Assembly (NCBI RefSeq): GCF_036675665.1
Contig: NZ_JAKFEO010000015.1
Location: 70,889 to 134,888, forward strand
Direction: 5' to 3'
Length of the DNA stretch: 64,000 bases
DNA from: Hydrogenophaga sp.
GTDB taxonomy: Bacteria > Pseudomonadota > Gammaproteobacteria > Burkholderiales > Burkholderiaceae_C
Part shown: piece by piece, positions 5,408 through 32,181 of the stretch
How positions within the stretch are numbered: the stretch's first letter is position 1
How the letters are laid out: every line of letters starts with the position of its first letter
Notes under the pieces: model-generated
What the model was told of the DNA's origin: nothing
Seen by the model: the letters and a program-made list of their open reading frames with translations, nothing else
Database searches by the model: none
Translations under genes and position numbers: made by a program

Positions 5408-5420
5408 CTATCAGGTCGTA

Positions 5421-5797: not shown

Positions 5798-5809
5798 AAG
5801 GCTCCTATT

Positions 5810-7191: not shown

Positions 7192-7214
7192 TGCTTGATT
7201 ATCGTCAGCCCATG

Positions 7215-7243: not shown

Positions 7244-7259
7244 GGGGCAACCCGAAGGT

Positions 7260-7910: not shown

Positions 7911-8171
7911 GGTTTTCCTCTTGGTAAGCCGCAGACAATCTGCGTACAAAAAAAGACGCTTGAAGTGACCACCACTCAAAACGCTGGATTTCATTGTGCC
8001 ACAAGCGCTATAGCGCCAACCGGCAGGTACGGGCGCCTCGGGGACTGTATTCCGACTGTCCCAGCATTCGTTGTGGTGTTACAACAAAGAGCGTGCCAAG
8101 GCGCGATCCGGTGCCACCCGTAAAATGGCGAGTTGCCTTTTGGCCCATCCGACGCATTTCTGCCCCTGCTC

Positions 8172-10820: not shown

Positions 10821-11926
10821 TGGCGCGCCCCTTCAACTTCTCAGCTGGCCCGGCGGCCATGCCCACCGAAGTGTTGCAGCAAGCCGCTGACGAGATGCTC
10901 GACTGGCGCGGCAGCGGCATGAGCGTGATGGAGATGAGCCACCGCGGCAAGGAGTTCAGCGCCATCATTGAGGCAGCAGAAGCCGATCTGCGTGAACTGC
11001 TGGCAGTGCCAGCAGAGTTCCGTATCTTGTTCATGCAAGGTGGCGGACTGGCCGAGAACGCCATCGTGCCGCTCAACCTCTCGCGCGGCGGCAAGGTGGA
11101 CTTTGTGGTCACCGGGAGCTGGAGCGAGAAGTCCATCAAGGAAGCAGCGCGCTACGCTCAACCCGTGCTGGCGGCCAGCAACGCCGATTCCGGCCACACC
11201 ACCTTGCCTTCGCCCGCCACCTGGAAGCTCAGCGCAGACGCTCAGTACGTGCACATCTGCAGCAACGAAACCATCCACGGCATCGAATTCCACGAATTGC
11301 CCAACCTCAAGGCTTTGGGCAGCAACGCGCCGCTGGTGATCGATTTTTCCTCCCATGTGGCATCGCGACCGGTGGACTGGTCGCGCGTGGGCCTGGCCTT
11401 TGGAGGCGCTCAAAAGAACCTGGGCCCGGCTGGTGTGACTCTCGTGGTCGTTCGCGAAGAACTGCTGGGCCATGCCCTGCCCGTCTGCCCGAGCGCATTC
11501 GACTACAAGACTGTGGCGGCGAATGCCTCGATGTACAACACGCCGCCCACCTTCAGCATCTACGTGGCCGGCCTTACCTTTCAATGGCTCAAGCGACAGA
11601 CCGAAGGTGGCCTGAGCGGCGTGGCGGCCATGGAGCAACGCAACATCGCCAAGGCCTCGCTGCTCTACGACTTCATTGACGCCTCCGCTTTCTACTTGAA
11701 CAAGGTCGCGCCCAACTGCCGTTCGCGCATGAACGTTCCGTTCTTTCTGCGCGACGAAGCCCTGAACGATGCATTTCTGGCCGGCGCCAAGGGCGCGGGC
11801 CTGTTGCAACTCAAGGGGCACAAATCGGTGGGCGGGATGCGCGCGAGCATCTACAACGCCATGCCGCTGGAAGGCGTGCAAACGCTGGTGCAATACATGC
11901 GCGACTTTGAAAAAACACGGGCCTGA
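10820..11926 (+). CDS. serC: phosphoserine aminotransferase
   Basis: ORF 10817..11926(+). The N-terminus [22 protein letters not shown] and the motif [10 protein letters not shown] are present. The GTG at 10817 and the ATG at 10820 overlap the gyrA stop, suggesting translational coupling. Confidence 0.95.
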
Positions 11927-11950
11927 CCCCAGGCCTCAGAACCCGAAGAC

Positions 11951-13048
11951 ATGACCCAACCCACTCAGTCAGATGCCCTGGCGGTCCTGCGCGTCCAGAT
12001 CGACGCGCTGGACCAGCAGTTGCTGTCGTTGCTCAACGAGCGTGCGCGCGTGGCCGAGGAAGTCGGCGTCATCAAGCGGCAAGAAGGTTCGCCATTTTTC
12101 AGACCGGACCGCGTGGCCCAGGTGATCGAAAAAATCCAGGGTGCCAATCAAGGCCCTCTCCTGAACCAGCATGTGGCATCGATCTGGCGCGAAATCATGT
12201 CGGCCTGCCTCGCGCTCGAAGCACCGCAGCGCGTGGCGGTGCTGGGCCCGCAGGGCACTTTCTGCGAGCAGGCAGCCATCGAGTTCTTCGGCAGCGCGGC
12301 CAACCTGATCTACTGCGCCGACTTCGACGAGGTGTTCCACGCCACCGCCGCCGGCACCGCGCAATTTGGTGTGGTGGGCATGGAGAACTCCACCGAGGGT
12401 GTGGTGGCACGGTCGCTGGACCTGTTCCTGCGTTCGCCCGTGCATGTGGTGGGTGAAGTGAGCCTGCTGGTGCGTCACAACCTGCTGCGCCAGCTCAACA
12501 CGCTGGACGGCATCGAAGTGGTCATGGCGCATCCCCAGGCCTTGGCCCAGTGCCAGAACTGGCTCTCGCAGCACCTGCCCAAGGCCGAAAAGCGGGCGGT
12601 CTCCAGCAATGCCGAAGGCGCTCGGCTTGCGGCCACCAATCCTGCTTGGGCCGGCATCGCCAGTGAGCGCGCTGCTGCTCAATTCGGCTTGCACATCGTC
12701 TCGCACGCCATCCAGGACGAGGCCTACAACCGCACGCGCTTTGCCGTGATCGCCTTGCCCCAGACGCTGGCCATGCCGCCTGCCTCGGGACGCGACTGCA
12801 CCAGCCTGGTGGTGTCGGTCCCCAATCGGCCAGGGGCGGTGCACGACCTGTTGGTGCCTCTCAAGAACAACGGTGTCTCGATGACGCGTTTCGAGTCGCG
12901 ACCGGCGAAATCCGGACAGTGGGAGTACTACTTCTATATCGACATCGCAGGCCACCCATCGCAGCCCAATGTGGCCGCCGCCCTACAAGAACTGCAAGGC
13001 CTGTGCGCTTTCTACAAGGTGCTGGGCGCGTACCCGGTGAACGAATGA
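11951..13048 (+). CDS. pheA: bifunctional chorismate mutase / prephenate dehydratase
   Basis: ORF 11951..13048(+). It has an N-terminal CM domain (LRVQIDALDQQLLSLLNERARVA), a PDT domain, and a C-terminal ACT domain with the ESRP motif (MTRFESRPAK). Confidence 0.93.
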   Translation: MTQPTQSDALAVLRVQIDALDQQLLSLLNERARVAEEVGVIKRQEGSPFFRPDRVAQVIEKIQGANQGPLLNQHVASIWREIMSACLALEAPQRVAVLGPQGTFCEQAAIEFFGSAANLIYCADFDEVFHATAAGTAQFGVVGMENSTEGVVARSLDLFLRSPVHVVGEVSLLVRHNLLRQLNTLDGIEVVMAHPQALAQCQNWLSQHLPKAEKRAVSSNAEGARLAATNPAWAGIASERAAAQFGLHIVSHAIQDEAYNRTRFAVIALPQTLAMPPASGRDCTSLVVSVPNRPGAVHDLLVPLKNNGVSMTRFESRPAKSGQWEYYFYIDIAGHPSQPNVAAALQELQGLCAFYKVLGAYPVNE

Positions 13049-13926
13049 TGTTTGAACAACTGGGATTGATCGGCTGCGGCATGATGGGCGGCTCGTTTGC
13101 GCTGGCTCTCAAGCGCGCCGGTCTGGTCAAACGCGTGGTCGGCTACAGCAAGTCTCCCTCCACCACCGAAAGGGCACGCCAGCTGGGTGTGATCGACGTT
13201 GAAGCCCCCTCTGCGTTGCTGGCCGTCTCGGGCGCTGATCTGGTGCTGCTCGCCGTGCCCGTGTCGGCCACCGAAGCCACCTTCAAGGCCATCCGGCACT
13301 TGGTGCGCGGTGACGTGCTGATCATGGATGTGGGATCGACCAAACGCGAAGTAATCGATGCGGCGCGACGCGTGCTCAAGGACCAGGTGGGCGTGTTCGT
13401 GCCAACGCATCCGATCGCGGGCAAGGAACTCGCCGGTGTCGACCATGCAGATCCCGATCTGTACAAGGGCCGTCAGGTCATCCTCACGCCGATCGAGCGC
13501 ACGCTCACGGCGCAACTGGACAAGGCACACAAGGTCTGGACCGCCCTGGGTTGCCACGTCAAGCAGATGTCGCCCGAAGCGCACGACGCTGCCTACGCAG
13601 CGGTGAGCCACTTGCCCCACCTGGTGGCGTTTGCCTTGATGAACGGCATCCAGAGCCAACAACAGGCGGCAGACTTCCTGTCGCTGGCCGGCCCAGGCTT
13701 TCGCGATTTCACGCGCATTGCGGCCAGCGACGCCGCCATCTGGCGCGACATCCTCATGTCCAATCGCGAAGAACTCCTGGCACAGTCTCGATTTTTTCAG
13801 CGGGCTTTGCATGCGTTGGAGACGGCCATCAATGCCGACAACCCGGACGCGCTGGAAGCCCTCATTGACCAAGCCAGCAGTGCCCGCGCCCATTGGCGCA
13901 TGACCGCCATCAAGCCCCAGAGCTGA
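13045..13926 (+). CDS. tyrA: prephenate dehydrogenase
   Basis: Lies inside ORF 12919..13926(+), with the start at [26 protein letters not shown] (Rossmann GxGxxG). The ATGA overlap with the pheA stop suggests coupling. Confidence 0.88.
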
Positions 13927-13963
13927 GCGACGCACGCTGCGGCGTTCTCGCGTCACCGCGCAC

Positions 13964-15973
13964 ATGTACTCCATTCCGTTCCTCGACATTCCTCCGCTGG
14001 CCACGGCTGACGGCACCGTACGCCTGCCGGGCTCCAAGAGCATCTCCAACCGGGTGCTCTTGCTGGCAGCCTTGAGCGAGGGTCACACCGACGTGACCGA
14101 CCTCCTGGACTCCGACGACACGCAAGTCATGCTGGACGCCCTGCGCCAGCTCGGCTGCAGGATCGAGCCACAACCCGACGGCGCCTTGCGTGTCCATGGC
14201 CTGGGCGGCGTCCTCCCGGTGCGACACGCGCGGTTGTTTCTGGGCAATGCAGGTACGGCCATGCGCCCCCTGACCGCTGCACTGGCTTTGCTGGCGTCGA
14301 CACACGGTGCCGAGTTCGAGCTCAGTGGCGTCCCGCGCATGCATGAGCGACCCATTGGTGACCTGGTGGATGCCCTGCGCCAACTGGGCTGCGCCGTGGA
14401 CTGCCTGGGCCAGGAAGGCTATCCGCCGCTCAAGCTCGGTGCGGGCACACCCCTTGCGCTGCAACTCGACCAGCCCATCCGCGTGCGGGGCGACGTCTCC
14501 AGCCAGTTCCTCACGGCGCTGCTGCTGGCCCTGCCGCTGGTGGCGCAGAAGCAAGGCGTCGTCATCGATGTCGTGGGCGAACTGATTTCGCGCCCATACA
14601 TCGAAATCACGCTGAACCTGCTCTCTCGTTTCGGTGTGCATGTGCAACGGGATGGCTGGCAACGTTTCACCATCCCTGCCGGTAGCCGCTACTGCTCGCC
14701 GGGGCGCATACCCGTCGAGGGCGACGCGTCATCGGCCAGCTACTTCATCGCGCTGGGTGCCATCGCGCATAGCACGCACGGCATCACCATCGAAGGCGTC
14801 GGTCTGGCCTCGATCCAGGGGGACATCCGGTTCGTCGAAGCGGCCAGACTCATGGGCGCCGAGATCACCGGAGAAGCCAATCACCTGCGCATTCGCCGTT
14901 GCGCGTGGCCACTCAAGGCCATCGACCTCGACTGCAACCACATCCCGGACGCCGCCATGACGTTGGCCGTGATGGCGCTCTATGCCGACGGCACCACCAC
15001 GCTGCGCAATATCGCCAGCTGGCGCGTGAAGGAAACCGACCGCATCGCCGCCATGGCCAACGAATGCCGCAAACTGGGTGCCACGGTGGAAGAAGGCACC
15101 GACTTCATCCGCATCACGCCGCCCACCACTTGGCGCTCCGCGAGCATCCACACCTACGACGACCACCGGGTGGCGATGTGCTTCTCACTGGCCAGCTTCA
15201 ACCCGGCGGGCCTGCCGGTGCGCATTGAAGATCCGAAATGCGTCGCCAAGACTTTTCCCGACTACTTCGAGACCTTGTTCGAGGTTTGCAGCACGCCAGC
15301 CCAAGCCATCCCAGTCATCTGCATTGACGGCCCCACGGCTTCCGGCAAGGGCACGTTGGCCTCTGAAGTGGCGCAGCGCCTGGGCTACCACCTGCTCGAC
15401 TCCGGCGCACTGTACCGGGCAACCGCGCTCGCAGCGCAAGACGCCGGCGTGTCGCTGGACGACGAACCCGCCCTGGCCCGCCTGGCCGCACAGCTGCCGC
15501 TGGCTTTCCGTGACCACAAGGTGTTTCTGGGTGGTCGCGACATCACCGACCCGCTGCGACTGGAATCCACCGGCGGCATGGCGTCCCGGGTATCCCAACA
15601 CCTGGCGGTGCGATCTGCCCTGTATGCCCTCCAGCAAAGCTTCCGGCGCCTGCCCGGTCTGGTGGCCGACGGGCGTGACATGGGCACGGTGATCTTCCCG
15701 GACGCGGCTTTGAAGGTGTTCCTGACCGCCACCGCCGAGCAGCGCGCCGAGCGGCGCCATAAGCAATTGATTTCAAAGGGAATTGCTGCTAACATCGACA
15801 GTCTTTTGGCAGACCTGCGAACGCGTGATTTGAGGGACTCATCCCGCACACACGCACCTCTCAAGCCGGCCGAAGACGCCTTGAAACTGGACAACTCCGA
15901 ACTGGACATCGAGCAATCGGTGCAAGTGGTGATGAACTGGTGGCAGGGCAAAACGGCGTTCTCGGGGAGCTGA
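13964..15973 (+). CDS. aroA-cmk: fused 3-phosphoshikimate 1-carboxyvinyltransferase (EPSP synthase) / cytidylate kinase
   Basis: A single 669-aa ORF. The first ~440 aa are AroA ([20 protein letters not shown] ... [11 protein letters not shown]). The frame then runs without a stop into Cmk ([38 protein letters not shown]). Confidence 0.93.
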
Positions 15974-19823: not shown

Positions 19824-22800
19824 TCAAGCTTTTCCGTAGCCGCCACCGCCGGGGGTGTGGATCTCGAAGATGTCGCCTGGCTTCATTTCCGCCTGCCCGA
19901 TGTGGCCCAGCTCCTCCTCTGAGCCATCTACCCGCACCACTCGATTGAGGCCCACCTGACCGGCCTGCCCACCGCCCATGCCGAACGCGCCGTGGAGGCG
20001 GCCATTGGACAGGATGCTGGCAGTCATGTCTTCGAGGAAACGAACGCGCCGCACGCCGCCGTGCCCCCCGTGCCAGCGGCCTGTGCCGCCTGAGCCTTCG
20101 CGGATCTCGTAGCTCTCCAGCCGAACCGGGAAGCGGAACTCCAGCACTTCGGGATCGGTCAGGCGTGAGTTGGTCATGTGGGTCTGCACCACGCTCGTGC
20201 CATCAAATCCCTCTCCCGCGCCACTGCCGCCCGAGATCGTTTCGTAATACTGGTGGGCCGCGTTGCCGAAGGTGAAGTTGTTCATCGTGCACTGACTCGC
20301 AGCCATCACGCCCAGCGCGCCATACAAGGCGTTGGTGATGCAGCTGGAGGTCTCCACGTTGCCGGCCACCACCGATGCCGGCGGATTGGGGTTGAGCATG
20401 GAGCCCGCGGGGATGATGACCTTGAGTGGCTTGAGGCAGCCGGCGTTCAGCGGGATATCGTCGTCGACCAAGGTGCGGAACACATAGAGCACAGCGGCCA
20501 TGCACACCGCGGTGGGGGCGTTGAAGTTGTTGAGTTGCTGAGCCGACGTTCCAGTGAAGTCGATCTCTGCGCTGCGCTGTGCGGTATTCACCCGCACGGC
20601 CACCTGAATCTGCGCACCGTTGTCCAGCGGCAGGGTGAATGCGCCGTCTTTGAGGCGCGTGATCACGCGTCGCACCGACTCTTCCGCGTTGTCCTGTACA
20701 TGGCGCATGTAGGCTTGCACCACGTCAAGACCGAACTGCTCGACCATCTTGCGCAGCTCCTGCACACCCTTTTCGTTGGCGGCGATCTGTGCCTTGAGGT
20801 CGGCCATGTTCTGCTGCGGGTTGCGAGAGGGAAACTCTCCGCCTTGCAACAGCGCCACCATCTCGGCTTCGAGCAAGACGCCACGATCAACCAACTTGAC
20901 GTTGTTGATCTGCACGCCCTCTTGTTCGATGCGCGTTGAGAACGGAGGCATGGACCCTGGAGTGGTGCCCCCGATGTCGGCATGGTGGCCGCGCGAGCCG
21001 ACGTAGAACGTGGGCTTGTTGCCCAGGTACACCGGCGTGATCACGGTCACGTCGGGCAGGTGGGTTCCACCGTGGTATGGGTCATTGAGCGCATACACAT
21101 CGCCACGCTGCATCTTGCCGGCGTTCTCACGGATCACGGTCTTGATGCTCTCGCCCATGGAGCCCAGGTGCACCGGCATGTGAGGTGCATTGGCAATCAA
21201 GTTGCCCTCGGCGTCGAACAGCGCGCACGAGAAGTCGAGTCGCTCCTTGATGTTGACCGAGTAGGCAGTGTTCTGCAGTTGCAGCCCCATCTGCTCGGCG
21301 ATGTTCATGAACAGATTGTTGAACACCTCCAGCAGCACGGGGTCCACCGTGGTGCCCACGGCGTAGGTCACGGTACGCGGCACGCGGCGGTCCAGAACCA
21401 GGTGATCGAGCGCGGTCAGAACAGCTTCCCAACCCGGCTCCACCACCGTTGTGGCATTCTTTTCGGCAATGATCGCCGGCCCTGGAATCACGTCACCCGG
21501 GCGCAGATCCTCGCGCACCACCAGGGCAGCGTCCAACCATTGACCACCGGAATACATGCGCACGGTTTCGCGCCGCGGCACTTCGCGGGCTTCATGCGTT
21601 TCAAAGCGGGGTTCGTCGGGCGCGTCGCCCGGCACCACCGCTTCCACCGACACCGCTTCCACCACCAGGCGCTTGCCTTGCATCAGGAAAGAGAAGCGCT
21701 GGCGGTAAGCGGACTCGAAGCCAGCCTGGATCGTGGCAAGGTCCCCGAATGGCACAACCAATGCCGAGTCGCTGCCTTCGTAGCGCACGTGCACCCTGTG
21801 GTGCACCTTGGCTTCACCCGCATTCACCTGCTGGCGTTCCAGTTCCGCTTGCGCGGTTGCGCCCAATGCATCGAGTTTTTCAGCAATCAGCGGCAAGGAG
21901 GTGGCCGCCAGCGGCAACTCCACCGCCTGCTCACGAATGACGTTTTGATCCGCCAGACCCATGCCGTAAGCGCTGAGCACGCCTGCAAGCGGGTGCACGA
22001 ACACGCGCGTCATGCCCAATGCATCAGCGACCAGGCAGGCGTGTTGCCCGCCCGCACCGCCGAAGCACTGCAGTGTGTAGCGTGTGACGTCATAACCGCG
22101 TGCGACTGAAATCTTCTTGATCGCGTTGGCCATCTGCTGAACCGCGATATTGATGAAACCTTCTGCCACTTCTTCAGGTGGACGACCGGTCTGCGCCGCC
22201 AATTCACCGAATCGAGCCTGCACCGCCTCCAGGCTCAACGCCTCGTTGGCCTTGGGGCCGAACACCTTGGGGAAATGGCGCGGCTGGATCTTGCCGGTCA
22301 TCACGTTGGCATCGGTGACCGCCAGCGGTCCGCCACGGCGGTAGCTGGCGGGTCCTGGGTTGGCACCTGCACTTTCGGGGCCCACACGGAAGCGGGCACC
22401 GTCGAATGAAAGAATGGAGCCTCCACCGGCCGCCACGGTGTGGATGCTCATCATGGGTGCGCGCATGCGCACACCCGCCACCTGGGTTTCAAACTCGCGT
22501 TCGAATTCACCCGCATAGTGTGAAACGTCGGTGGAGGTGCCACCCATGTCAAAGCCGATCACCTTGTCCTGGCCCGCCAGGCCCGCCGTGCGGGCCATGC
22601 CCACAATGCCGCCAGCCGGACCTGAGAGGATCGCATCCTTGCCCTGGAACGCTCGCGCGTCCGTCAATCCGCCCGAAGACTGCATGAAGAACAGCTTGAC
22701 ACCCGGCATCTCGCCGGCCACCTGCTCCACATAGCGTCGCAGGATGGGCGAGAGGTAGGCGTCGACCACGGTCGTGTCGCCGCGGCTCACGAACTTCATC

Positions 22801-23417
22801 ATCGGACTGGTCTCATGCGAGGTGCTCACCTGCGTGAAGCCGACCTCACGGGCAATGCGACTGGCGGCCTGTTCGTGGGCGGTGAAGCGGTAGCCGTGCA
22901 TGAACACGATGGCCATGCTGCGCAGTCCGCGCGCGTATGCGGCCAACAAATCTCGACGCAACGCCACCTCATCCAGCACCTGCAGCACATTGCCGTGCGC
23001 GCTGACACGTTCCTGTGCCTCAATCACCTCGCTGTACAGCAACTCGGGCAAGACAATGCGGCGATCGAACAGGCGCGGGCGGTTTTGGTACGCGATGCGA
23101 AGCGCATCACGAAAACCGCGTGTGGTCACGAGCAGCGTTGGTTCGCCCTTGCGCTCCAGCAGCGCGTTGGTGGCCACAGTGGTGCCCATCTTCACGCACT
23201 CCACGAGCGCAGGCGTCACAGGCTCGCCGTGTTTCAAACCCAGCAGGTGGCGAATGCCGGCCACCGCCGCATCACGGTACTGCTCGGGGTTCTCGGACAA
23301 AAGCTTGTGGGTGGTGAGTGAACCATCCGGCTTCTTGGCCACGATGTCGGTGAAGGTGCCGCCACGATCGATCCAGAATTGCCAGCGGCTGCCCAGTGGG
23401 GAAGTGTTGTCTTGCAT
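19824..23417 (-). CDS. ATP-dependent 5-oxoprolinase / N-methylhydantoinase family, fused HyuA-HyuB (OplAH type)
   Basis: A 1197-aa ORF. The N-terminus [21 protein letters not shown] marks the hydantoinase A ATPase. The C-terminal half ([20 protein letters not shown]) is the hydantoinase B/oxoprolinase domain. Confidence 0.9.
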
Positions 23418-23429
23418 GATTTGCGAACT

Positions 23430-24392
23430 TTAACGTTGAAGGTAGTAGGGAACGAAGATCAGGTTGGCTTCGCTGCCCACCGATCTCACCCATTCACGGG
23501 AAAACTTTTCGCCCAGACGCTTGAGTTCAGCTTCGAAGCCGAGTGGCACGCGGCCCACCTTGATGCCGCGGCGCTGCAACTCCTGGGTGGATTCGTTGGC
23601 CACCGCCTCACTCAGCGCCCAGCCGCGTACCTCGGCGCGGGCGGCAGCCTGGGTCACCGCCTCACGGACTGATGTGGGCAAAGCGTCAAAAGCCTTGGCA
23701 TTGACGAACACAATGTTTTTGGGGAACCAGGCGTTGATACCGTAGTAGAAGCCGATCTGGTCCCACACGCGGTTCTCCACCCCGGTCACGGCGGAGGTGA
23801 TCATGCTGTCCACCCTGCGGTCGGCGAGCGCCTGATTGACCTCGACCATCGGCACATCCACCGGCGAAGCACCCAGCATCTCGGCGATGCGCACGGTGGA
23901 CTGGTTGTAGGTGCGCATGCGTGTGCCTTTGAAGTCGGCCGCCGAGTGCACTGGCTGGTTGGTGAACAACCCTTGAGGTGGCCAGGGCACCACGTACAAA
24001 GCCTTCAACCCTCTCGCTCCAAAATGCTTCTCGATCAATGGGCGCTGCAAATGCCAGAGCCGACGGGCATCACCATAGCTTTGCACCACGAAGGGAATGG
24101 CATCGGCCCCCGCGATCGGGATATCCCCCACCATGCTGGTCATGATGGTCTCACCCGCCTCCACCTTGCCCTCTTGCACCGCCCGACGGATCTCCACGAG
24201 CTTGAACAGGGTGTTGTCGGGGCGAAGCTCGATGCGCAACGCGCCAGCCGTGGCTTGCTCCACATCGCCCGCGAACTGGGCAAGGTTCTGCGTGTGAAAT
24301 GAGTCCGCCCTGTAGCCAGTTGCCAGTTGCCAGCGCGTCTGCGCGTGCGTCACCGAGGCCGCAGTCAATGCGGCCAGCAGAAACAGCTTCAT
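23430..24392 (-). CDS. TRAP transporter substrate-binding protein (DctP family), paralogue 2
   Basis: ORF 23430..24398(-). The start was chosen at MKLFLLAALTAASVTHAQT (GGAG sits 6 nt upstream of the ATG at 24392). It is a paralogue of the proteins at 26339..27307 and 29293..30258. Confidence 0.85.
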   Translation of the reverse strand: MKLFLLAALTAASVTHAQTRWQLATGYRADSFHTQNLAQFAGDVEQATAGALRIELRPDNTLFKLVEIRRAVQEGKVEAGETIMTSMVGDIPIAGADAIPFVVQSYGDARRLWHLQRPLIEKHFGARGLKALYVVPWPPQGLFTNQPVHSAADFKGTRMRTYNQSTVRIAEMLGASPVDVPMVEVNQALADRRVDSMITSAVTGVENRVWDQIGFYYGINAWFPKNIVFVNAKAFDALPTSVREAVTQAAARAEVRGWALSEAVANESTQELQRRGIKVGRVPLGFEAELKRLGEKFSREWVRSVGSEANLIFVPYYLQR

Positions 24393-24419
24393 GGGCATCT
24401 CCGGTTCAGTGGGCCAGGC

Positions 24420-25718
24420 TCAACTCTGCATCTGGCGCGGCAGCCACAGCACGATGTCGGGAACAAAGTAGGTCAGGAGCACCGCGACCAGCATCAGCAG
24501 GAACAGCGGCAATGCGGTGCGGGCAATCCAGGTCACTTCGCGCCGGGTCAATCCCTGGATCACAAACAAATTGAAGCCCACCGGGGGTGTGATCTGTGCC
24601 ATCTCGACCACCAGCACGATGAAGATGCCGAACCAGATGAGGTCGAAGCCGGCGGCTTCGACGGTGGGCAACAACACCGCAATGGTCAGCACCACCATCG
24701 AAATGCCATCCAGAAAACACCCGAGCACGATGAAGAACACGATCAACATCAGCATCAGATTGAACGGCGACAGGTGCAACCCGCCGATGAATTCGGCCAG
24801 GTGGCGCGGCAGACCAATGAAGCCCATGGCCAGGGTGAGGAACGCAGCGCCCGCCAGGATCAACCCGATCATGCAGTAGATGCGACAGGCAGCGACCAAA
24901 CCGTCCTTGAAGCGCGCCCAGTCCAGCGAGCCCTCGATCCTGGCCAGGAACAGAGCGCCGCCAACACCCAATGCGGCCGCTTCGGTGGCGGTGGCAATGC
25001 CGCTGTAGATACCCCCCAGCACCAGAGCGATCAGTGAGACCACCGGGATCAGGTGCCGCGAGGCATGGATCTTCTGAGCAAAGGTCATGGCCGTATCGGC
25101 GGCGGGAACCTTGTCCTTGTTGAACAGAGCCCACACGATGATGTAGCCCATGAACAGCATTGCCAGCATCAAGCCCGGCAACACACCGGCCAGAAACAGC
25201 TTGGAGATCGAGACGTTGGCCGCGACACCGTAGACGATCATGATGATCGAAGGGGGAATCAGCAGGCCCAGCGTGCCAGCGCCGGCGAGCGTGCCCACCG
25301 AGATGTCTTCAGGGTACCCCCGCTTCTTCAACTCCGGCAGCGTGATCTTGCCGATGGTGGCGCAGGTGGCCGCGGACGAACCCGAGATCGCCGCGAAGAT
25401 GGTGCAGCCCACGACGTTGGTGTGGAGCAGGCGGCCCGGCAGTCGATCGAGCCAGGGGGCCAGGCCCTTGAACATGTCGTCCGAAAGCTTGCTTCGAAAC
25501 AGAATCTCGCCCATCCACAGGAACAGCGGCAGCGCCGTCAGAGTCCAGCTTGATGTTGAACCCCAGATGGTCAACATCATGCTGTCACCGACGGGGCGAG
25601 AGGTGAACAGATCCATGCCGATCAGCGCCACCGCGAGCAGGGACAGGCCAATCCACAAACCGCCACCCAGCAGGGCGAGCAGCAGCAGCATCAGGCCTGC
25701 GGCAATCAAGATATCCAT
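24420..25718 (-). CDS. TRAP transporter large permease (DctM)
   Basis: A 432-aa polytopic ORF. It is a close paralogue of 30886..32181 (FRSKLSDDMFKGLAPWLDRLPGRLLHTNV versus FRTKLSESMFRGLAPWVNALPGRLLHTNI). Confidence 0.9.
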   Translation of the reverse strand: MDILIAAGLMLLLLALLGGGLWIGLSLLAVALIGMDLFTSRPVGDSMMLTIWGSTSSWTLTALPLFLWMGEILFRSKLSDDMFKGLAPWLDRLPGRLLHTNVVGCTIFAAISGSSAATCATIGKITLPELKKRGYPEDISVGTLAGAGTLGLLIPPSIIMIVYGVAANVSISKLFLAGVLPGLMLAMLFMGYIIVWALFNKDKVPAADTAMTFAQKIHASRHLIPVVSLIALVLGGIYSGIATATEAAALGVGGALFLARIEGSLDWARFKDGLVAACRIYCMIGLILAGAAFLTLAMGFIGLPRHLAEFIGGLHLSPFNLMLMLIVFFIVLGCFLDGISMVVLTIAVLLPTVEAAGFDLIWFGIFIVLVVEMAQITPPVGFNLFVIQGLTRREVTWIARTALPLFLLMLVAVLLTYFVPDIVLWLPRQMQS

Positions 25719-25745
25719 GGAAATTCCTTCGAGGCAGAGCGGGAG

Positions 25746-26285
25746 TTATTCGATGTGCGCGGCTTCTGTGCTCACCGCAATGAAGTGGCCGCCCTGCCAG
25801 CGCATCAGCAGCGCATGGGCAAATGACAGCGCAAAGCCAACGCAACCCAGCGCCATGCCGAGTTGGGGAATCCACAGAGGCGTGGCGTCTGCACCCGGGG
25901 AGATGTCGTGCGTGTCCCAAGAGACCCAAACGAGTCGGATGGCGTACCAGGCCAACGCCAGCGCGATGACCAACCCTCCGGCGAGACAGATCCATTCCAG
26001 CGCACCACGAACACGTGTCGGCAAACGGTCCAGCAACAGCGTCACGCGAATGTGATCGCCATGCCGCAGCGTGGTGGGCAGGGCGAGAAACAGCGCACAA
26101 GCAATGGCATAGCCCGCATAGGCATCAAGCCCCGGGATGTCCCAATGCACTTCACGCGCCACGACACCGAGCAGCACGGCGGCAAAAGCCGCGATCATGG
26201 ATACGCACGACAGGAACATCAGCCCCTGGTAGAAACGAAAGGCGAATTGGGACACCGCACTCTCCTGGGTTCGGTTGAAGGGCAA
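25746..26285 (-). CDS. TRAP transporter small permease (DctQ)
   Basis: A 179-aa ORF with four TM segments. Its position between DctP and DctM fits, and it is a paralogue of 30390..30893. Confidence 0.8.
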   Translation of the reverse strand: MPFNRTQESAVSQFAFRFYQGLMFLSCVSMIAAFAAVLLGVVAREVHWDIPGLDAYAGYAIACALFLALPTTLRHGDHIRVTLLLDRLPTRVRGALEWICLAGGLVIALALAWYAIRLVWVSWDTHDISPGADATPLWIPQLGMALGCVGFALSFAHALLMRWQGGHFIAVSTEAAHIE

Positions 26286-26338
26286 AAAAAAGGGAGTGAG
26301 GCGAGCGGGCAGAAGCGCCCGCCCGTCAGGGAGGCGGC

Positions 26339-27307
26339 TTACCGCACGCCGCGGTAAGCGTCGATCACGGCCTGGCCTTCGGGGCCGGCGGTCTTGAGCC
26401 AGTCGCTGGTCATGGTTTCGCCGATGGCGGCGAGCTCTTTCTTGAGGCTGTCGGACGGTTCTGCAATCGTCATGCCCTTGGCGCCGAGTTCCTTGATGAA
26501 CTCGCCGTTGAGTCTCTCACTGGTGACCCAGCCGCGCTGCTCAGCCGCAGCAGCCGCCTTGATCACGGCGTCCTGCAGGGGCTTGTCCAGCGCATCAAAG
26601 GCCTTCTGGTTCACCACGGTGGCGTTGCGCGGCAACCATGCGCTGACCGGGTAGAAGTACTTCACCTGCTCGTACAGCTTGCTCTCGACACCACTGGCGC
26701 TGGAGGTGAGGAAGTTCTGCACCCCACCGGTGGCCAGCGCCTGCGGCAGTTCTGCCAGCTGGATGGTGACCGGCTGGGCCTTGAGCAACTGCGCAATGCG
26801 CGTGGTGGCGGGGTTGTAGGCACGCATCTTCGTGCCAGCCAGATCGGCGGGGCTATTCACCGGCTTGATCGAGTAGAGCGACTGACCGGGCCATGGCACG
26901 GTGAACAACACTTTCATGCCCTGGGAACCCAACAGCTTGTCCTGGGCCGGTTTGCCTGCTTCGTACAGGCGCTTGGCCGCGGGGTAGGTGGTGGCCAGAA
27001 AGGGGATGGAGTCCAGACCGAACAGGGCGTTCTCGTTGGCCGACCCCGACAGGATGAACTCGGCCACCGGCACCTGAGCGGTCTGCACGGCGCGCTTGAT
27101 CTCGTTGGCCTTGTAGAGCGAGCCGCCCGGATGCACCGTGATCTTGAGTTTGCCGCCGGTGAGCTGGTCCACCTCGTCGGCGAACTGCTGCACGTTCTGG
27201 GTCTGGAAACTGTTGGCGGAATACCCCGTGGGAAGGTCCCACCTGGTTTGTGCCGAAGCGGCGCCGGCAAGGGTGACAGCGGTAAGGCAGAACAGCATCT
27301 TTTTCAT
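26339..27307 (-). CDS. TRAP transporter substrate-binding protein (DctP family), paralogue 1
   Basis: Lies inside ORF 26339..27439(-), with the start at MKKMLFCLTAVTLAGAASAQTRWDL (cat 27305-27307). Confidence 0.85.
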   Translation of the reverse strand: MKKMLFCLTAVTLAGAASAQTRWDLPTGYSANSFQTQNVQQFADEVDQLTGGKLKITVHPGGSLYKANEIKRAVQTAQVPVAEFILSGSANENALFGLDSIPFLATTYPAAKRLYEAGKPAQDKLLGSQGMKVLFTVPWPGQSLYSIKPVNSPADLAGTKMRAYNPATTRIAQLLKAQPVTIQLAELPQALATGGVQNFLTSSASGVESKLYEQVKYFYPVSAWLPRNATVVNQKAFDALDKPLQDAVIKAAAAAEQRGWVTSERLNGEFIKELGAKGMTIAEPSDSLKKELAAIGETMTSDWLKTAGPEGQAVIDAYRGVR

Positions 27308-27321
27308 CGTAGGCTCCTGGT

Positions 27322-28146
27322 TCAAAAAATGGCTAACTGGTGATTGAGAAGGTCGGTGATCAGCATCGCACCGGGGGCGTGCGTGATGCAGAACGCGGGA
27401 CGGGCCTGCTGGATCGCGGCCTGCGGTGTGACGCCACAAGCCCAGAACACCGGCAGTTCATCGGGCAGCACGTCCACCGCGTCGCCATAGTCGGGCCGCG
27501 AAAGGTCGTGAATGCCGATCTGGGACGGATCACCGATGTGCACCGGTGCACCGTGGACACTGGGAAAGCGCGATGTGACCTGCACCGCTCGGATGGCGTC
27601 TGCAGCCTTCATGGGGCGCATGGACACCACCAAAGGGCCACTGAAAAGGCCGGCTGGTTCCGTGGGGATGTTGGTTCGATACATGGCAACGTTGCGCCCC
27701 TGCTCAACATGGCGCAACGACAAACCAGCCACCATCAGCGCCTGCTCAAAGGAAAACGAACAACCGATCACGAAGCTCACCAGACCTTCACGCCAGAGGC
27801 TGGTGATGTCCGTGGGCTCGTCGATCAGTTCACCATGGCGCCAGACGCGATAGCGCGGCAAGTCGGAACAGATGTTGATGTCCGGACCCAGCGTCGGCAA
27901 CAGGCGATCACCTGGTTCCGACACCGCCAGCAGCGGGCAGGGCTTGGGGTTGCGCTGGCAGTAACGCAGGAAATCCACGGCCAACGACTCCGGCAGGATG
28001 ACAACGTTGCCCTGTACATGCTGGTCGGCCAGGCCGCTGGTGTGTGAACTCCAACGACCCAGGCGGATCAAGCTGCGCACATGGGAAGCGTTCTGCAGGC
28101 CGTCCTGCCCGAACACATCCACCGCCAATTGGGGAGTTGAATCCAC
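27322..28146 (-). CDS. DUF1445 / UPF0317 'putative hydro-lyase' (D-glutamate cyclase-like fold)
   Basis: A 274-aa ORF with a GTG start. It shows [38 protein letters not shown] and PVHIGDP. The last motif, [10 protein letters not shown], is as I recall characteristic of this family. Confidence 0.85.
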
Positions 28147-28244
28147 CGCGTCTCCTGCTGCTTTCGCATGTCACCGTGATGACGATGGGCGGATTGTGGA
28201 GGGCGATCAGCGTGAACTCAAATTCAAAATTTTTCGCTTATCTC

Positions 28245-28259
28245 ATCGATTTTTTCGAT
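28245..28259. promoter_or_regulatory. LysR-type T-N11-A box (ATC-N9-GAT)
   Basis: ATCGATTTTTTCGAT is a perfect dyad in the only AT-rich stretch of this region. It lies 3 nt past the LysR stop and about 100-113 nt upstream of the DUF1445 start at 28146. Confidence 0.45.
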
Positions 28260-28261
28260 GC

Positions 28262-29197
28262 TCACGAACGGGGCACGGTGCGCCTGGATGGTGCACGCGC
28301 GGCGCGAGTCTTGGTACCAAACTGCGCTTCAACGAAGGTCAAGGCCGATTTCACCACCGTCTCCACGGCGTCCGTGGTGGGGTCTGTCCGATAGCTGGCG
28401 TGGATCGGCAACGGCTGCAACGCGCTGTCGCATGCCAGCGGGCGCAGGTCGGGGTAGTTCTGCATGCGCTGGACCGCGTAAAGAGGCAGCGTGGCCACAC
28501 CGAAGCCCCCCTGCACCAGCTGCACCATGGCCGAGATCGACGAGATGGTGTGCACACGACCGGGTTCCACGCCCTCCTGCCGAAACAGATCGATCAGCGC
28601 CACATGCGGGTGGGAACCGCGTTGGAAGGTCAACAGTTCCAGTTCGGACAATTCGCTCAATGCATAACGGCGCTTGCGATGCAGTTGCGCATGCCCCATG
28701 AACACCATCTCCATCGGTGGCAGGCTTCGGCTGCGCACGCCGTCGGCCGCCGCGGGCAACGCGGCAAACACGATGTCCTGCGTGCCGCGTTGCACCTGCT
28801 CCACCAGGATGGGCGTGGTCTCCACCGTGAGTTCCAGCGCCAGCGCAGGGTGGTCGGCGCGCAGTTTCTCGATCCAGGGGATCAACCACGAATGCAGTAC
28901 CGATTCGATGGCGCCAATGCGCAGCGATACCGCCAACGCGGCACCCGATCCCATCTCGGCCTTCACCTCGCGCTGCAGCTCCAGCAGCCGCTGGGCATAA
29001 GTGAAGAAGCGTGTTCCCGCCACCGTCAGGCGGAACTGCTTGTCACGCCGATCCAGCAGCAGAACACCGAGTTCTTCCTCCAGCGCTGCAATGCGGCTGG
29101 ACATGGCCGATTGCGTGAGGAACAGCTTGTCGGCCGCACGCGTGACGCTTTTGAGCGACGCCACCCAGTAAAACGCTTCGACAAATCGCAGGTTCAT
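28262..29197 (-). CDS. LysR-family transcriptional regulator
   Basis: Lies inside ORF 28262..29353(-), with the start at MNLRFVEAFYWVASLKSVTRAADKLFLTQSAMSSRIAALEEELGVLLLDRR (wHTH, cat 29195-29197). Confidence 0.9.
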   Translation of the reverse strand: MNLRFVEAFYWVASLKSVTRAADKLFLTQSAMSSRIAALEEELGVLLLDRRDKQFRLTVAGTRFFTYAQRLLELQREVKAEMGSGAALAVSLRIGAIESVLHSWLIPWIEKLRADHPALALELTVETTPILVEQVQRGTQDIVFAALPAAADGVRSRSLPPMEMVFMGHAQLHRKRRYALSELSELELLTFQRGSHPHVALIDLFRQEGVEPGRVHTISSISAMVQLVQGGFGVATLPLYAVQRMQNYPDLRPLACDSALQPLPIHASYRTDPTTDAVETVVKSALTFVEAQFGTKTRAARAPSRRTVPRS

Positions 29198-29214
29198 GGA
29201 ATCGACTCCGGGGG

Positions 29215-29242
29215 AAATACCCGAGCGTCTGGCCCGGTATTT
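29215..29242. promoter_or_regulatory. inverted repeat in LysR / TRAP-2 divergent intergenic region (candidate operator)
   Basis: AAATACC-N14-GGTATTT, followed by the small palindrome GCATTTATGC. It sits between the LysR start (29197) and the dctP start (29293). Confidence 0.3.
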
Positions 29243-29292
29243 GCATTTATGCTGATGGTCCTCGTCATTCAACCCATTGTCCCGGAGAAACC

Positions 29293-30258
29293 ATGAAGAA
29301 CCAATTTGGCCTGTTCGCCGCCGCCCTTGTCCTGGGCTCCGCTGCCCACGCACAAACCAAATGGGATTTGCCGGCAGCCTACCCGGCGACCAACTTCCAT
29401 TCCGTCAACCTCGCTTCATTCGCGTCCGATGTGCAGAAGGCCACGGGCGGCAAACTGCAGATCACCGTGCACCCCGGTGCATCGTTGTTCAAAGCTCCCG
29501 AGATCAAGCGCGCCGTGCAAGGCGGGCAGGCACAGATCGGCGAGATCCTGTTGGCCGCGTACCAGAATGAATGGCAGATGTTCGGCGCCGATGGCCTGCC
29601 CTTCCTGGCCACCAGTTACGCCGATTCCATGAAGCTCTACAAGGCACAGAAGCCCATTCTGGAGAAGAAGCTCGCAGAGCAGGGCATGACGCTGCTCTAC
29701 ACCGTGGCCTGGCCTCCGCAAGGCATCTACAGCAAGAAGCCCCTGAGCAGCGCGGCCGACCTCAAAGGCAGCAAGTGGCGCGCCTACAGCCCGGCCACCT
29801 CGCGCATCGCCGAACTGGTGGGCGCACAACCGGTCACCGTGCAGGCCGCCGAGCTGTCGCAGGCGCTGGCCACCGGTGCGGTCGAAGCCAACATGACCTC
29901 GGGCGCCACCGGCGTGGACAGCAAGCTTTACGAGCACCTGAAGTTCTACTACGACGTGCAGGCCTGGTTGCCGAAGAACGCCATCATCGTGAACAAGCGC
30001 GCGTTCGACGCACTGGACAAGCCCACGCAGGACGCGCTGCTCAAGGCCGGCGCTGACGCCGAAGCCCGCGGCTGGGCTGCTTCGCAAAAGGTCAACACCG
30101 ACACGCTGGCCATCCTCAAGGCCAATGGCATGGCGGTGGAGCCGCCGTCGGCTGCGCTCAAGGCCGACATGCAGAAGGTGGGTGAGACCATGCTCAAGGA
30201 ATGGCTTGAAAAAGCGGGTCCCGACGGCCAAGCCATGCTCGACGCGTATAAAAAGTAA
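29293..30258 (+). CDS. TRAP transporter substrate-binding protein (DctP family), paralogue 3
   Basis: A 321-aa ORF. It has the signal peptide MKNQFGLFAAALVLGSAAHAQT, and GGAGA lies upstream of the ATG. Confidence 0.88.
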   Translation: MKNQFGLFAAALVLGSAAHAQTKWDLPAAYPATNFHSVNLASFASDVQKATGGKLQITVHPGASLFKAPEIKRAVQGGQAQIGEILLAAYQNEWQMFGADGLPFLATSYADSMKLYKAQKPILEKKLAEQGMTLLYTVAWPPQGIYSKKPLSSAADLKGSKWRAYSPATSRIAELVGAQPVTVQAAELSQALATGAVEANMTSGATGVDSKLYEHLKFYYDVQAWLPKNAIIVNKRAFDALDKPTQDALLKAGADAEARGWAASQKVNTDTLAILKANGMAVEPPSAALKADMQKVGETMLKEWLEKAGPDGQAMLDAYKK

Positions 30259-30260
30259 AC

Positions 30261-30340
30261 ACCCCCCGCCGCGCTCCGCGCGACCCCCTCAAGGGGGCGA
30301 GACCTGCCGCCCGGCAAAGCCGGTTCGGCGGTCTCACTGG
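30261..30340 (+). repeat. double-hairpin intergenic repeat, copy A
   Basis: accccccgccgcgctccgcgcgaCCCCCtcaaGGGGGcgagacCTGCCGCCCGGCaaaGCCGGttCGGCGGtctcactgg. It lies between dctP (stop 30258) and dctQ (start 30390), in the same orientation as the operon. Confidence 0.7.
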
Positions 30341-30389
30341 GTTGGACCCGGGCACGCGCAACGGGTCATTCATCTGAAGTCACATCCCC

Positions 30390-30893
30390 ATGCGCAAATT
30401 CCTCGATTCTCTCTACCTCGGCGCGGCCTGGCTGGCCGCGCTGTTCATGATCGGCGTGCTGCTCATGGTGCTGTTGTCCGTGCTGGGTCGCGCGCTGCAG
30501 TTCTATGTGCCCGGCACCGACGCCTATGCAGGCTACGCCATGGCAGGTGCGGGGTTTCTCGCGCTGGCGCACACCCTCAAAAGCGGTGAACACATCCGCG
30601 TGACGCTGATCATCGGCAAACTCACCGGCCGCGCGCGGCGCGGACTGGAGCTGTGGTCGTTGTCGGTAGCGGTGCTTCTGGCCGGCCTGCTCGCGGTCTA
30701 CGCCTGGCGGCTGGCCTGGCAGTCGCACCAATTCCACGACATCTCCACCGCCGCCGATGCCACGCCGCTGTGGATTCCGCAGATTCTCATGGCCGTGGGC
30801 ACCACGGTGCTGCTGATCGCCTTCGTCGACGATTGGGTGCTGGAGTTGCAGCGCAAGCGTTCGCACGACAGCGTGGAGACGCGACATGAATGA
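30390..30893 (+). CDS. TRAP transporter small permease (DctQ)
   Basis: A 167-aa ORF with four TM segments. It overlaps the dctM start by 8 nt. Confidence 0.8.
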   Translation: MRKFLDSLYLGAAWLAALFMIGVLLMVLLSVLGRALQFYVPGTDAYAGYAMAGAGFLALAHTLKSGEHIRVTLIIGKLTGRARRGLELWSLSVAVLLAGLLAVYAWRLAWQSHQFHDISTAADATPLWIPQILMAVGTTVLLIAFVDDWVLELQRKRSHDSVETRHE

Positions 30894-32181
30894 AGTCCTC
30901 GTCACCACCATGCTCATCGTCTCGCTGTTCGCCCTGCTGGGCAGCGGCGTCTGGATCGGCCTCACGCTCGCGGGCGTGGCCTGGATCGGCATGGAGATGT
31001 TTTCCTCGCGGCCGGCGGGCGACGCCATGGCCATCACCATCTGGGGATCGGCCAGCAGCTGGACGCTGACCGCGCTGCCCTTGTTCGTGTGGATGGGTGA
31101 GATCCTGTTCCGAACGAAGCTCTCGGAGAGCATGTTCCGTGGTCTGGCACCCTGGGTCAACGCCCTGCCCGGTCGGCTGCTGCACACCAACATCCTGGGC
31201 AGCACCATCTTCGCTGCGGTCTCGGGTTCGTCGGCCGCCACCTGCGCCACCATCGGCAAGATGAGCATCCCCGAGCTCACCAAGCGTGGCTACCCGCCTG
31301 AAAAGATCGTCGGATCGCTCGGTGGCGCCAGCACGCTCGGCCTGCTGATTCCACCCTCGATCATCATGATCGTTTACGGCGTGGCGGCCGAGGTATCCAT
31401 CGCCAAGCTGTTCGTGGCGGGTGTGCTTCCCGGCCTGATGCTGGCCGGGCTGTTCAGTGGACACCTGATGATCTGGGCACTGCTCAACCCGAAGAAGGTG
31501 CCGCGGAGCGACACGAGCATGACGCTGACGCAGAAGCTGAGCGAGTCGCGCCACCTGATCCCGGTGATCGTGCTCATCGGCGGCGTGATCGGCACCATCT
31601 ACACCGGCGTCGCCACCGCCACCGAAGCGGCGGCGGTGGGCGTGGTGGGCGCACTCATCCTCTCGGGTGCGCAAGGCTCGCTGAACTGGACCACGTTCCG
31701 CGACTCGTTGCTGGGCGCCACACGCCTCTATTGCATGATCGCGCTGATCCTCGCGGGTGCGGCCTTTCTCACACTGGCCATGGGATACATCGGCCTGCCG
31801 CGCCACCTGGCAGAGTTCGTCACCGGGCTGAACCTGTCGCCAGGCGTGCTGCTGGTGGCGCTGGCGCTGTTCTACATCGTGCTCGGCTGTTTTCTTGACG
31901 GCATTTCCATGATCGTGCTGACCATGGGCGTGATCCTGCCCACGGTCACTGCCGCCGGCCTCGATCTGATCTGGTTCGGCGTCTTCGTGGTGATCGTGGT
32001 GGAGATGGCGCAGATCACGCCACCCGTGGGCTTCAACCTCTTTGTGCTGCAGGGCATGACCCAGCGCGAAATCACCTGGATCGCCAAGGTCTGCATGCCC
32101 TACTTCCTCCTGATGGTGCTGGCGCTGCTGTTGCTGTGGTGGTTTCCGCAAATCGTTACCTGGTTGCCATCGAGAATGTGA
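30886..32181 (+). CDS. TRAP transporter large permease (DctM)
   Basis: A 431-aa polytopic ORF, paralogue of 24420..25718. Confidence 0.9.
   Translation: MNEVLVTTMLIVSLFALLGSGVWIGLTLAGVAWIGMEMFSSRPAGDAMAITIWGSASSWTLTALPLFVWMGEILFRTKLSESMFRGLAPWVNALPGRLLHTNILGSTIFAAVSGSSAATCATIGKMSIPELTKRGYPPEKIVGSLGGASTLGLLIPPSIIMIVYGVAAEVSIAKLFVAGVLPGLMLAGLFSGHLMIWALLNPKKVPRSDTSMTLTQKLSESRHLIPVIVLIGGVIGTIYTGVATATEAAAVGVVGALILSGAQGSLNWTTFRDSLLGATRLYCMIALILAGAAFLTLAMGYIGLPRHLAEFVTGLNLSPGVLLVALALFYIVLGCFLDGISMIVLTMGVILPTVTAAGLDLIWFGVFVVIVVEMAQITPPVGFNLFVLQGMTQREITWIAKVCMPYFLLMVLALLLLWWFPQIVTWLPSRM

Follow-up and report, generated by a model that had tools for sequence, protein, structure and literature searches.

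What does a DUF1445 protein contribute to an operon that otherwise appears to serve the uptake and ATP-dependent opening of a lactam? The question is raised by a stretch of 64,000 nucleotides from Hydrogenophaga sp. (RefSeq assembly GCF_036675665.1, contig NZ_JAKFEO010000015.1, positions 70,889 to 134,888), referred to here as the window. Between lapB and rdgC, the window contains an island (19824-32181) in which a LysR-type regulator gene is followed on the minus strand by a DUF1445 gene, a tripartite ATP-independent periplasmic (TRAP) transporter with two solute-binding proteins, and a fused HyuA-HyuB hydrolase of presumed OplAH type. A second TRAP system lies divergently on the plus strand. 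The island may represent a LysR-controlled system for the uptake and catabolism of 5-oxoproline (pyroglutamate) in which DUF1445 handles the D-form, a reading that is given a probability of roughly 0.45. Its parts differ in strength: 5-oxoproline is probably the substrate of the transporters and the OplAH enzyme, and the assignment of the D-enantiomer to DUF1445 is tentative. The transporter and OplAH half is a described, putative kind of system; the link to DUF1445 is the new part.

DUF1445 genes and their neighbors across bacteria

The neighborhood of DUF1445 was surveyed in the 80 closest DUF1445 genes to the query, an alignment of 11 sequences, with one locus per species and flanks of up to 10 kb, so that the counts are not family-wide percentages. 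Neighboring genes were annotated with a few reference proteins and an open reading frame (ORF) choice based on GC content at third codon positions (GC3). An OplAH-type gene lies within 8 kb of DUF1445 at 23 of the 80 loci, and a TRAP transporter is also present at 15 of these 23. Genes of PxpABC, an unrelated 5-oxoprolinase, stand beside DUF1445 at 7 loci, and a DUF4392 gene is found within 4 kb at 20; at 11 loci, a TRAP transporter is the sole partner. None of these partners was found at 23 loci, in 9 of which contig ends shorten the flanks. The classes overlap, with one locus containing both OplAH and Pxp genes and three containing both Pxp genes and DUF4392, and thus sum to more than 80. 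Linkage to OplAH would be expected by chance at ~1.4 of the 80 loci (p ~ 1e-21) under our own assumption of at most five HyuA/HyuB paralogues per genome. The association of DUF1445 with oxoprolinase genes, which a first-pass annotation of the window had proposed from this one operon, thus extends beyond it.

The order LysR-DUF1445-TRAP-OplAH is shared by the window, Acidovorax, Rhodoferax, Polaromonas, and Caldimonas. In Variovorax, Paraburkholderia, Burkholderia, and Rhizobium, an MFS carrier takes the place of the TRAP transporter (LysR-DUF1445-MFS-OplAH), and in Azospirillum and Ferrovibrio the hydrolase is exchanged (LysR-DUF1445-TRAP-PxpBCA). Bacillota show the arrangement NRAMP-PxpB-PxpA/C-DUF1445. 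A further layout, NRAMP-PxpA-DUF1445-PxpBC-biotin carboxylase, is found on Klebsiella plasmids and in Shinella, Lactiplantibacillus plantarum, and Acinetobacter baumannii. In addition, natural fusions of HyuA-HyuB with DUF1445 occur; the 1.84 billion representative proteins scanned include two full-length fusions (1477 and 1480 amino acids) and three fragments. Two of the fusions come from metagenome-assembled genomes (MAGs) of Planctomycetota, with an interdomain linker of ~30 residues.

The neighbors of close DUF1445 homologues point to D-glutamate. DUF4392, the second domain of the animal D-glutamate cyclase, is one of them. Class IV aminotransferases, the D-amino-acid type, adjoin DUF1445 in Marinomonas, Thalassotalea, and Pseudoalteromonas; MurD-like ligases lie nearby at 8 loci, AmpD-like amidases are also neighbors, and the Pseudoalteromonas locus has a GH3 hydrolase and an M15 peptidase in its vicinity. 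The DUF1445 proteins in these D-glutamate or murein contexts are 58 to 70% identical to the window protein. Since proteins this much alike are spread over all of these settings, they probably share one activity.

Several further arrangements were observed around DUF1445. In five alphaproteobacterial MAGs (L027, L028, L036, L050, and L052, at about 10000-14500), DUF1445 and DUF4392 form a conserved block with an ORF of ~460 amino acids with no Pfam match and a MurD-like Mur ligase. At L024, L051, and L081, an AmpD-like N-acetylmuramoyl-L-alanine amidase is encoded immediately upstream, as is a TerB-domain protein. The arrangement looks like an uncharacterized module tied to D-glutamate or murein peptides. 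Amidase-signature enzymes recur beside DUF1445 at ~14 loci and might form a third class of partners that open amides. A further cyclic-amide hydrolase context is found on an Agrobacterium plasmid (L098, 4777-10811), where a divergent DUF1445 gene (43% identity) stands in a GntR-controlled operon with an ABC binding protein, a dihydropyrimidinase (hydA), an SDR enzyme, and a heme-binding protein. At L010 (2469-5700), the OplAH gene beside DUF1445 is broken into more than 10 ORF fragments, with PxpB, PxpC, and PxpA on the other side; either a decaying OplAH is being replaced by Pxp, or the fragments reflect assembly frameshifts.

Genes, proteins, and candidate regulator box of the island

Each minus-strand gene named in the first-pass annotation, from LysR through DUF1445, DctP, DctQ, DctM, and a second DctP to HyuA-HyuB, is recovered with Pfam and NCBIfam models. 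From the DUF1445 gene to the HyuA-HyuB gene, the intergenic gaps are 23, 53, 27, 21, and 12 nt. The close spacing proposed earlier thus stands, with derived values of 12 to 53 nt in place of 13 to 54 nt and a spacer of 115 nt (28147-28261) between lysR and the DUF1445 gene. The extent proposed earlier, 19824-28146, covers the operon but stops short of the second TRAP system at 29293-32181. Since the same cluster recurs on an Acidovorax plasmid and in many species, the gene arrangement is not due to chance. Homologues of PxpA, PxpB, and PxpC are absent from the window in phmmer searches with Klebsiella and Lactiplantibacillus queries, and homologue searches of the same 64 kb gave no DUF4392, NRAMP, or biotin carboxylase gene.

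The two complete TRAP sets lie on opposite strands, at 23430-27298 (minus) and 29293-32181 (plus). The first comprises DctP1 (26339..27298), the small membrane subunit DctQ1 (25746..26285; PF04290, E = 3e-22), the large membrane subunit DctM1 (24420..25718; PF06808, E = 1e-82; TIGR00786, 389 bits against a cutoff of 268), and a second, more divergent solute-binding protein, DctP2 (23430..24398). The second is headed by DctP3 (29293..30258; PF03480, E = 4e-38), followed by DctQ2 (30390..30893; PF04290, E = 3e-19) and DctM2 (30886..32181; PF06808, E = 4e-81).

All three binding proteins belong to the pyroglutamate-binding DctP6/DctP7 subfamily; DctP1 and DctP2 are 42% identical to one another. 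A search of the PDB gives 2PFZ as the best match of DctP1 (324 bits, 50% identity) and 2PFY and 2PFZ as the best matches of DctP2 (244 and 229 bits, 35 to 37% identity); DctP3 is the nearest of the three to 2PFZ, with 63% identity. All three score 229 to 324 bits against 2PFZ or 2PFY, compared to at most 91 bits against other liganded TRAP binding proteins. According to accounts in PMC13274462 and PMC5812351, 2PFZ and 2PFY are DctP6 and DctP7 from Bordetella pertussis, their crystal structures contain pyroglutamate, and DctP7 binds this ligand with a dissociation constant of 0.3 uM. The same accounts place the two genes near a "eukaryotic-type 5-oxoprolinase" and take this as evidence of 5-oxoproline uptake by a TRAP transporter. 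The ligand of a TRAP binding protein must be a carboxylate, which is held by a conserved arginine (PMC4646407), and this residue is present in DctP1, DctP2, and DctP3.

The divergent layout of a second TRAP system is also seen at four other loci (L005, L006, L009, and L011). A different block, DctP-DctQ-DctM-DUF2848-amidase (PF01425)-DUF1445, is conserved in Achromobacter (L018-L021 and L025, at about 4500-10800); its DctP belongs to another subfamily, with ~27% identity to the window DctPs.

The last gene of the operon (19824..23417, minus strand) encodes the fused HyuA-HyuB ATP-dependent lactam or hydantoin hydrolase of 1197 amino acids. Four Pfam domains, Hydant_A_N, Hydantoinase_A, Hydant_A_C, and Hydantoinase_B, cover residues 14-1196, which matches the OplAH architecture of a single chain of ~1200 to 1300 amino acids with the N-terminal, core, and C-terminal parts of HyuA followed by HyuB. 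The enzyme is 46 to 84% identical to every DUF1445-linked OplAH compared. Its best relative in the PDB, the N-methylhydantoinase 7HK5, is only ~35% identical. No curated NCBIfam equivalog model claims the protein: it reaches 312 and 186 bits with the caprolactamase models (cutoffs of 1000) and at most 164 bits with the acetophenone carboxylase models (cutoffs of 1250 to 1500).

The first gene of the operon (27322..28146, minus strand) has a GTG start preceded by AGGAGA and encodes a DUF1445 protein of 274 amino acids, which belongs to the YcsI family, also designated UPF0317 "putative hydro-lyase." It scores 230 bits with PF07286 (E = 9e-69; cutoff of 25) and 416.5 bits with NF003969 (cutoff of 324) and is 98% identical to a Hydrogenophaga "putative hydro-lyase" at NCBI. 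The family comprises 3586 cluster representatives at 50% identity and has two crystal structures, 3DB9 and 2PIF, which the window protein matches with E values of 1e-83 and 1e-79. An AlphaFold2 model with a mean confidence score (pLDDT) of 89 superimposes on them in Foldseek with template modeling (TM) scores of 0.85/0.93 for 2PIF and 0.76/0.88 for 3DB9; besides these two, Foldseek returned just a weak NrpR-like match. The motifs GCSFSFE and FWACGVTPQ had raised the suspicion of a two-cysteine fold like that of the Asp/Glu racemases, which was rejected because the fold search shows no such kinship and the first cysteine (GCS motif) is not kept throughout the family. The cysteine of the WACG motif is nearly invariant.

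The first-pass annotation equated DUF1445 with the fold of mammalian D-glutamate cyclase. The kinship is borne out by 46% identity between the window protein and the N-terminal domain of a DGLUCY orthologue from fish, but the two-domain nature of DGLUCY, with its DUF4392 domain, had been overlooked. The window protein consists of a single domain and does not show the DUF1445-DUF4392 architecture. The mouse enzyme converts D-glutamate into 5-oxo-D-proline, the D-form being the only product when D and L standards are resolved (PMC5339696). Fusions of DUF1445 and DUF4392 occur in both domain orders, among them sequences from sponges, cnidarians, choanoflagellates, and vertebrates. In the representative library, DUF1445 is also fused to MGMT-type DNA_binding_1, PLP-dependent PALP (threonine dehydratase-like), NUDIX, and FKBP_C domains. 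No functional study of a bacterial DUF1445 protein was found in the open literature; the original papers from 2007 and 2017 may have remarked on the linkage of ycsI.

The regulator gene (28262..29197, minus strand) precedes the DUF1445 operon in the same orientation and is divergent from dctP3, with a 95-bp spacer (29198-29292) in between. It encodes a LysR-type protein of 311 amino acids with HTH_1 and LysR_substrate domains. The maximal ORF spans 28262-29353, and the ATG at 29197 is taken as the start because the helix-turn-helix domain begins only at residue 53 of this ORF. The spacer between lysR and DUF1445 contains a candidate LysR box, the T-N11-A inverted repeat ATCGAAAAAATCGAT (28245..28259, minus strand), which is the sole perfect copy in the window; matches with up to three mismatches are expected 0.06 times by chance. 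The pattern ATCGA-W5-TCGAT occurs exactly once per locus in 13 related OplAH-type loci. In 12 of the 13, it lies ~100 to 190 bp upstream of the DUF1445 gene, irrespective of the transporter type; in the remaining one (L049), it is found ~1.2 kb upstream, directly after lysR. This conservation in front of DUF1445 points to a probably LysR-controlled operon that starts with DUF1445.

The hairpin CATCGAAAAAATCGATG after lysR was also considered as a terminator, a reading that was dropped. A LysR box is likelier because the hairpin is kept upstream of DUF1445 in the 13 loci, including one (L017) with a divergent lysR gene. No sigma-70-like site emerged from a consensus scan, in which terminator-like sites were no commoner than in shuffled sequence; such a scan is uninformative in this high-GC genome. 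The spacers at 28147-28261 (minus strand) and 29198-29292 (plus strand) share a stretch of ~29 nt, TyAyGCTGATsGyCCTC..CA.TC..CCC, which may serve both transcription units as a shared promoter or activation site for their co-regulation.

Apart from the island, the window contains an aroA-cmk fusion (13964-15973, plus strand) upstream of rpsA, an ORF of 669 amino acids with 5-enolpyruvylshikimate-3-phosphate (EPSP) synthase and cytidylate kinase domains.

Proposed function and rival explanations

The first-pass annotation argued, from the replacement of both hydrolase and transporter by nonorthologous parts, that DUF1445 is tied to the import of 5-oxoproline or a related lactam and to its ATP-dependent opening. 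As far as genomic association goes, this interpretation is supported by the mixed partners, the gene fusions, the linkage at 23 of 80 loci, and the LysR box. Its statement that no role for this combination had been demonstrated in bacteria agrees with our literature searches, which returned nothing to that effect.

In the proposed mechanism, the two TRAP transporters, served by three DctPs, would concentrate the lactam in the cell, as judged from their homology to liganded structures. The 1197-residue OplAH-type enzyme would convert 5-oxo-L-proline into L-glutamate at the cost of ATP, a role suggested by its family, its context, and the Bordetella precedent. DUF1445, a single-domain protein homologous to the N-terminal domain of the animal D-glutamate cyclase, would interconvert 5-oxo-D-proline and D-glutamate without ATP. 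In the reverse direction, surplus D-glutamate would be trapped as the lactam. The D-glutamate pool would be drained by a racemase, transaminase, or dehydrogenase. By our own reasoning, opening of the L-lactam would need ATP because the L-glutamate pool is very large, and the D-lactam could be opened by mass action because the D-glutamate pool is small and drained.

Several points weigh against this assignment. The island proteins are known here from their genes alone, and the island itself is without a D-amino-acid catabolic gene. The 80 loci, being the query's closest kin, do not form an unbiased sample, and their annotation stems from a few reference proteins. Mouse DGLUCY combines DUF1445 with DUF4392, so its cyclase activity is known from a two-domain enzyme and has not been credited to DUF1445 (PMC5339696); DUF4392, the partner domain missing from the window, is a Mn-dependent metalloenzyme in the case of TON_0340 (PMC5132392). 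Many lactams and hydantoins are substrates within the HyuA/HyuB family, and the 1197-residue enzyme is only presumed to be a 5-oxoprolinase. The use of 5-oxoproline by B. pertussis could not be established. Deletion of mumU, by our annotation the DUF1445 gene of A. baumannii, had no phenotype in urea and calprotectin tests (PMC5050338). Finally, the fusion of OplAH with DUF1445 suits sequential steps better than parallel ones.

Four other explanations account for parts of these data. The substrate could be another carboxylated lactam, a hydantoin, or a cyclic imide (e.g., 6-oxopipecolate, hydroxy-oxoproline, or hydantoin carboxylate), with DUF1445 as a hydro-lyase or cyclization step acting on this compound or its open form. 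Such a role would suit the breadth of the HyuA/HyuB family, which spans N-methylhydantoinase, caprolactamase, and the acetone and acetophenone carboxylases, as well as the lack of a curated equivalog model for the 1197-residue protein, the modest identity of DctP2 (35 to 37%) to the pyroglutamate binders, and the dihydropyrimidinase and amidase-signature enzymes adjoining divergent DUF1445 genes; EC 4.2.1.48 is reported to be active on derivatives of D-glutamate too. Against it stand DctP3 and DctP1, with 63% and 50% identity to a protein of submicromolar affinity for pyroglutamate, the recurrent alternative partner PxpABC, which is a proven 5-oxoprolinase, and the 58 to 70% identity between the window protein and the DUF1445 proteins in D-glutamate or peptidoglycan contexts. 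Another substrate is thus possible and, on balance, rather unlikely. DUF1445 might instead assist the ATP-dependent opening of the lactam regardless of chirality, by acting on a reactive or phosphorylated intermediate, by blocking re-cyclization of the product, or in a complex with OplAH or PxpABC. This unlikely reading would explain the fusion to OplAH, the embedding of the gene among pxp genes (pxpA-DUF1445-pxpBC) in Klebsiella, Shinella, and Acinetobacter, and the company of three kinds of ATP-dependent machinery. It is weakened by 17 loci with DUF1445 and DUF4392 but no oxoprolinase within 8 kb and by the 23 loci without any partner, from which it follows that DUF1445 works without oxoprolinase partners. 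In addition, free D-glutamate is the substrate of the animal enzyme, and characterized PxpABC systems such as pxpTABC of Corynebacterium glutamicum function without DUF1445 in the operon.

The sequential coupling implied by the OplAH fusion would be explained if DUF1445 were a racemase that turns imported or endogenous 5-oxo-D-proline into the L-form for an L-specific OplAH or PxpABC. Together with a DUF4392 cyclase, this would give an ATP-driven route from D-glutamate to L-glutamate and would account for clusters of the type DUF1445-PxpA-PxpB-PxpC-DUF4392; the nearly invariant cysteine of the WACG motif also fits. The DUF1445 model, on the other hand, lacks an Asp/Glu-racemase-like fold in Foldseek, the first cysteine of the pair (GCS motif) is not conserved in the family, and full-length mouse DGLUCY, which contains the DUF1445 domain, yields 5-oxo-D-proline when D and L standards are resolved. 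A racemase is therefore considered improbable. That DUF1445 merely happens to lie beside an unrelated transporter and hydrolase finds a foothold in the 23 loci without any of the partners and is highly implausible in view of operons that recur across classes and phyla with varied partners, the existing gene fusions, and the regulator box common to the loci.

The preferred reading, a two-sided use of 5-oxoproline with DUF1445 on the D-side, can be taken further. DUF1445 would then be the missing bacterial catalyst for 5-oxo-D-proline and would form, with the ATP-dependent oxoprolinases, a two-enantiomer pyroglutamate module. In a radical form, the DUF1445-linked OplAH clade and DUF1445 would act as one unit that spends ATP to make L-glutamate from the D-glutamate or 5-oxo-D-proline that peptidoglycan releases. 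This extension is speculative and held to be doubtful; if true, the OplAH-DUF1445 unit would be a means of D-glutamate salvage without glutamate racemase.

The subject matters beyond this island. 5-Oxoproline arises unavoidably from glutamate and glutamine, and D-glutamate is freed wherever peptidoglycan turns over; the literature searched contained no description of how bacteria handle the D-lactam. The DUF1445 family is large and without an assigned bacterial function. Since it keeps company with two unrelated oxoprolinases, with several types of transporter, with DUF4392, and with genes for D-amino acids or murein, the function is narrowed to a short and simply testable list. Knowledge of this function would also help to decide which domain is catalytic in DGLUCY, the human heart enzyme. 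What the island offers is a testable hypothesis and not a categorically new mechanism.

Comparison with known systems

Other HyuA/HyuB enzymes, such as the N-methylhydantoinase 7HK5, the caprolactamase CapAB, and the acetone and acetophenone carboxylases, share the domains and the ATP dependence of the 1197-residue enzyme. In contrast to it, they show no link to pyroglutamate-type TRAP binders. Mammalian DGLUCY (C14orf159 or 9030617O03Rik) has in common with the window the DUF1445 domain, at 46% identity for the vertebrate orthologue. Bacterial DUF1445 genes are often adjacent or fused to DUF4392, as in DGLUCY, whereas that of the window is not.

The mumRTLUHC operon of A. baumannii (PMC5050338) resembles the island in its LysR-type regulator and its DUF1445 gene, which has as neighbors a PxpA homologue and machinery for ATP-dependent amide activation. 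It differs in having NRAMP, PxpA, a fused PxpBC ("allophanate hydrolase"), and biotin carboxylase. In our own annotation of this locus (L099, 5898-12105), mumU is DUF1445, mumL is homologous to PxpA, and mumH fuses PxpB with PxpC; the mumTLUHC-type layout is also found at L002 and L094. The operon has been interpreted in terms of urea and Mn metabolism (PMC5050338), and the linkages of DUF1445 invite a re-reading of this assignment, which may need revision.

The order pxpA(ycsF)-ycsG-ycsI-pxpB-pxpC of Bacillus subtilis, as given in the first-pass annotation, agrees with PMC10448178 and PMC13274462. This operon combines, like the island, a transporter, an ATP-dependent 5-oxoprolinase, and DUF1445 (YcsI) with a local regulator; YcsG has been reported as a Mn2+ importer as well. 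C. glutamicum pxpTABC likewise has a transporter, an ATP-dependent 5-oxoprolinase, and a local regulator, but the operon is without a DUF1445 gene. The parts themselves are unrelated between the island and the pxp operons: OplAH compared to PxpABC, TRAP compared to an NRAMP-like carrier, and LysR compared to a GntR- or KipR-type regulator.

The closest parallel to the transporter and hydrolase is the DctP6/DctP7 locus (BP1887/BP1891) of B. pertussis, whose pairing of TRAP and OplAH has been noted as a putative pyroglutamate system since 2007 (Rucktooa 2007, as cited in PMC5812351 and PMC13274462). DUF1445 is not mentioned in the passages of PMC5812351 and PMC13274462 that deal with this locus. 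Both systems use binding proteins of the same subfamily, those of the island being 37 to 63% identical to 2PFZ or 2PFY, and both have several DctPs and pair TRAP with a fused HyuA-HyuB enzyme. The island differs in forming a single operon headed by DUF1445 and in its second complete TRAP system, and the membrane components of the Bordetella locus are described as defective. In Achromobacter, which is related to Bordetella, a 2PFZ orthologue (89 to 90% identity) is flanked by a DUF1445 gene, at a distance of ~3 to 5 kb, and by an OplAH gene whose product is 70% identical to the 1197-residue enzyme; the Bordetella counterpart of this product is the one termed a eukaryotic-type 5-oxoprolinase in PMC13274462. 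Because the two sets of genes adjoin in this genus, the island and the Bordetella-type locus are versions of one system.

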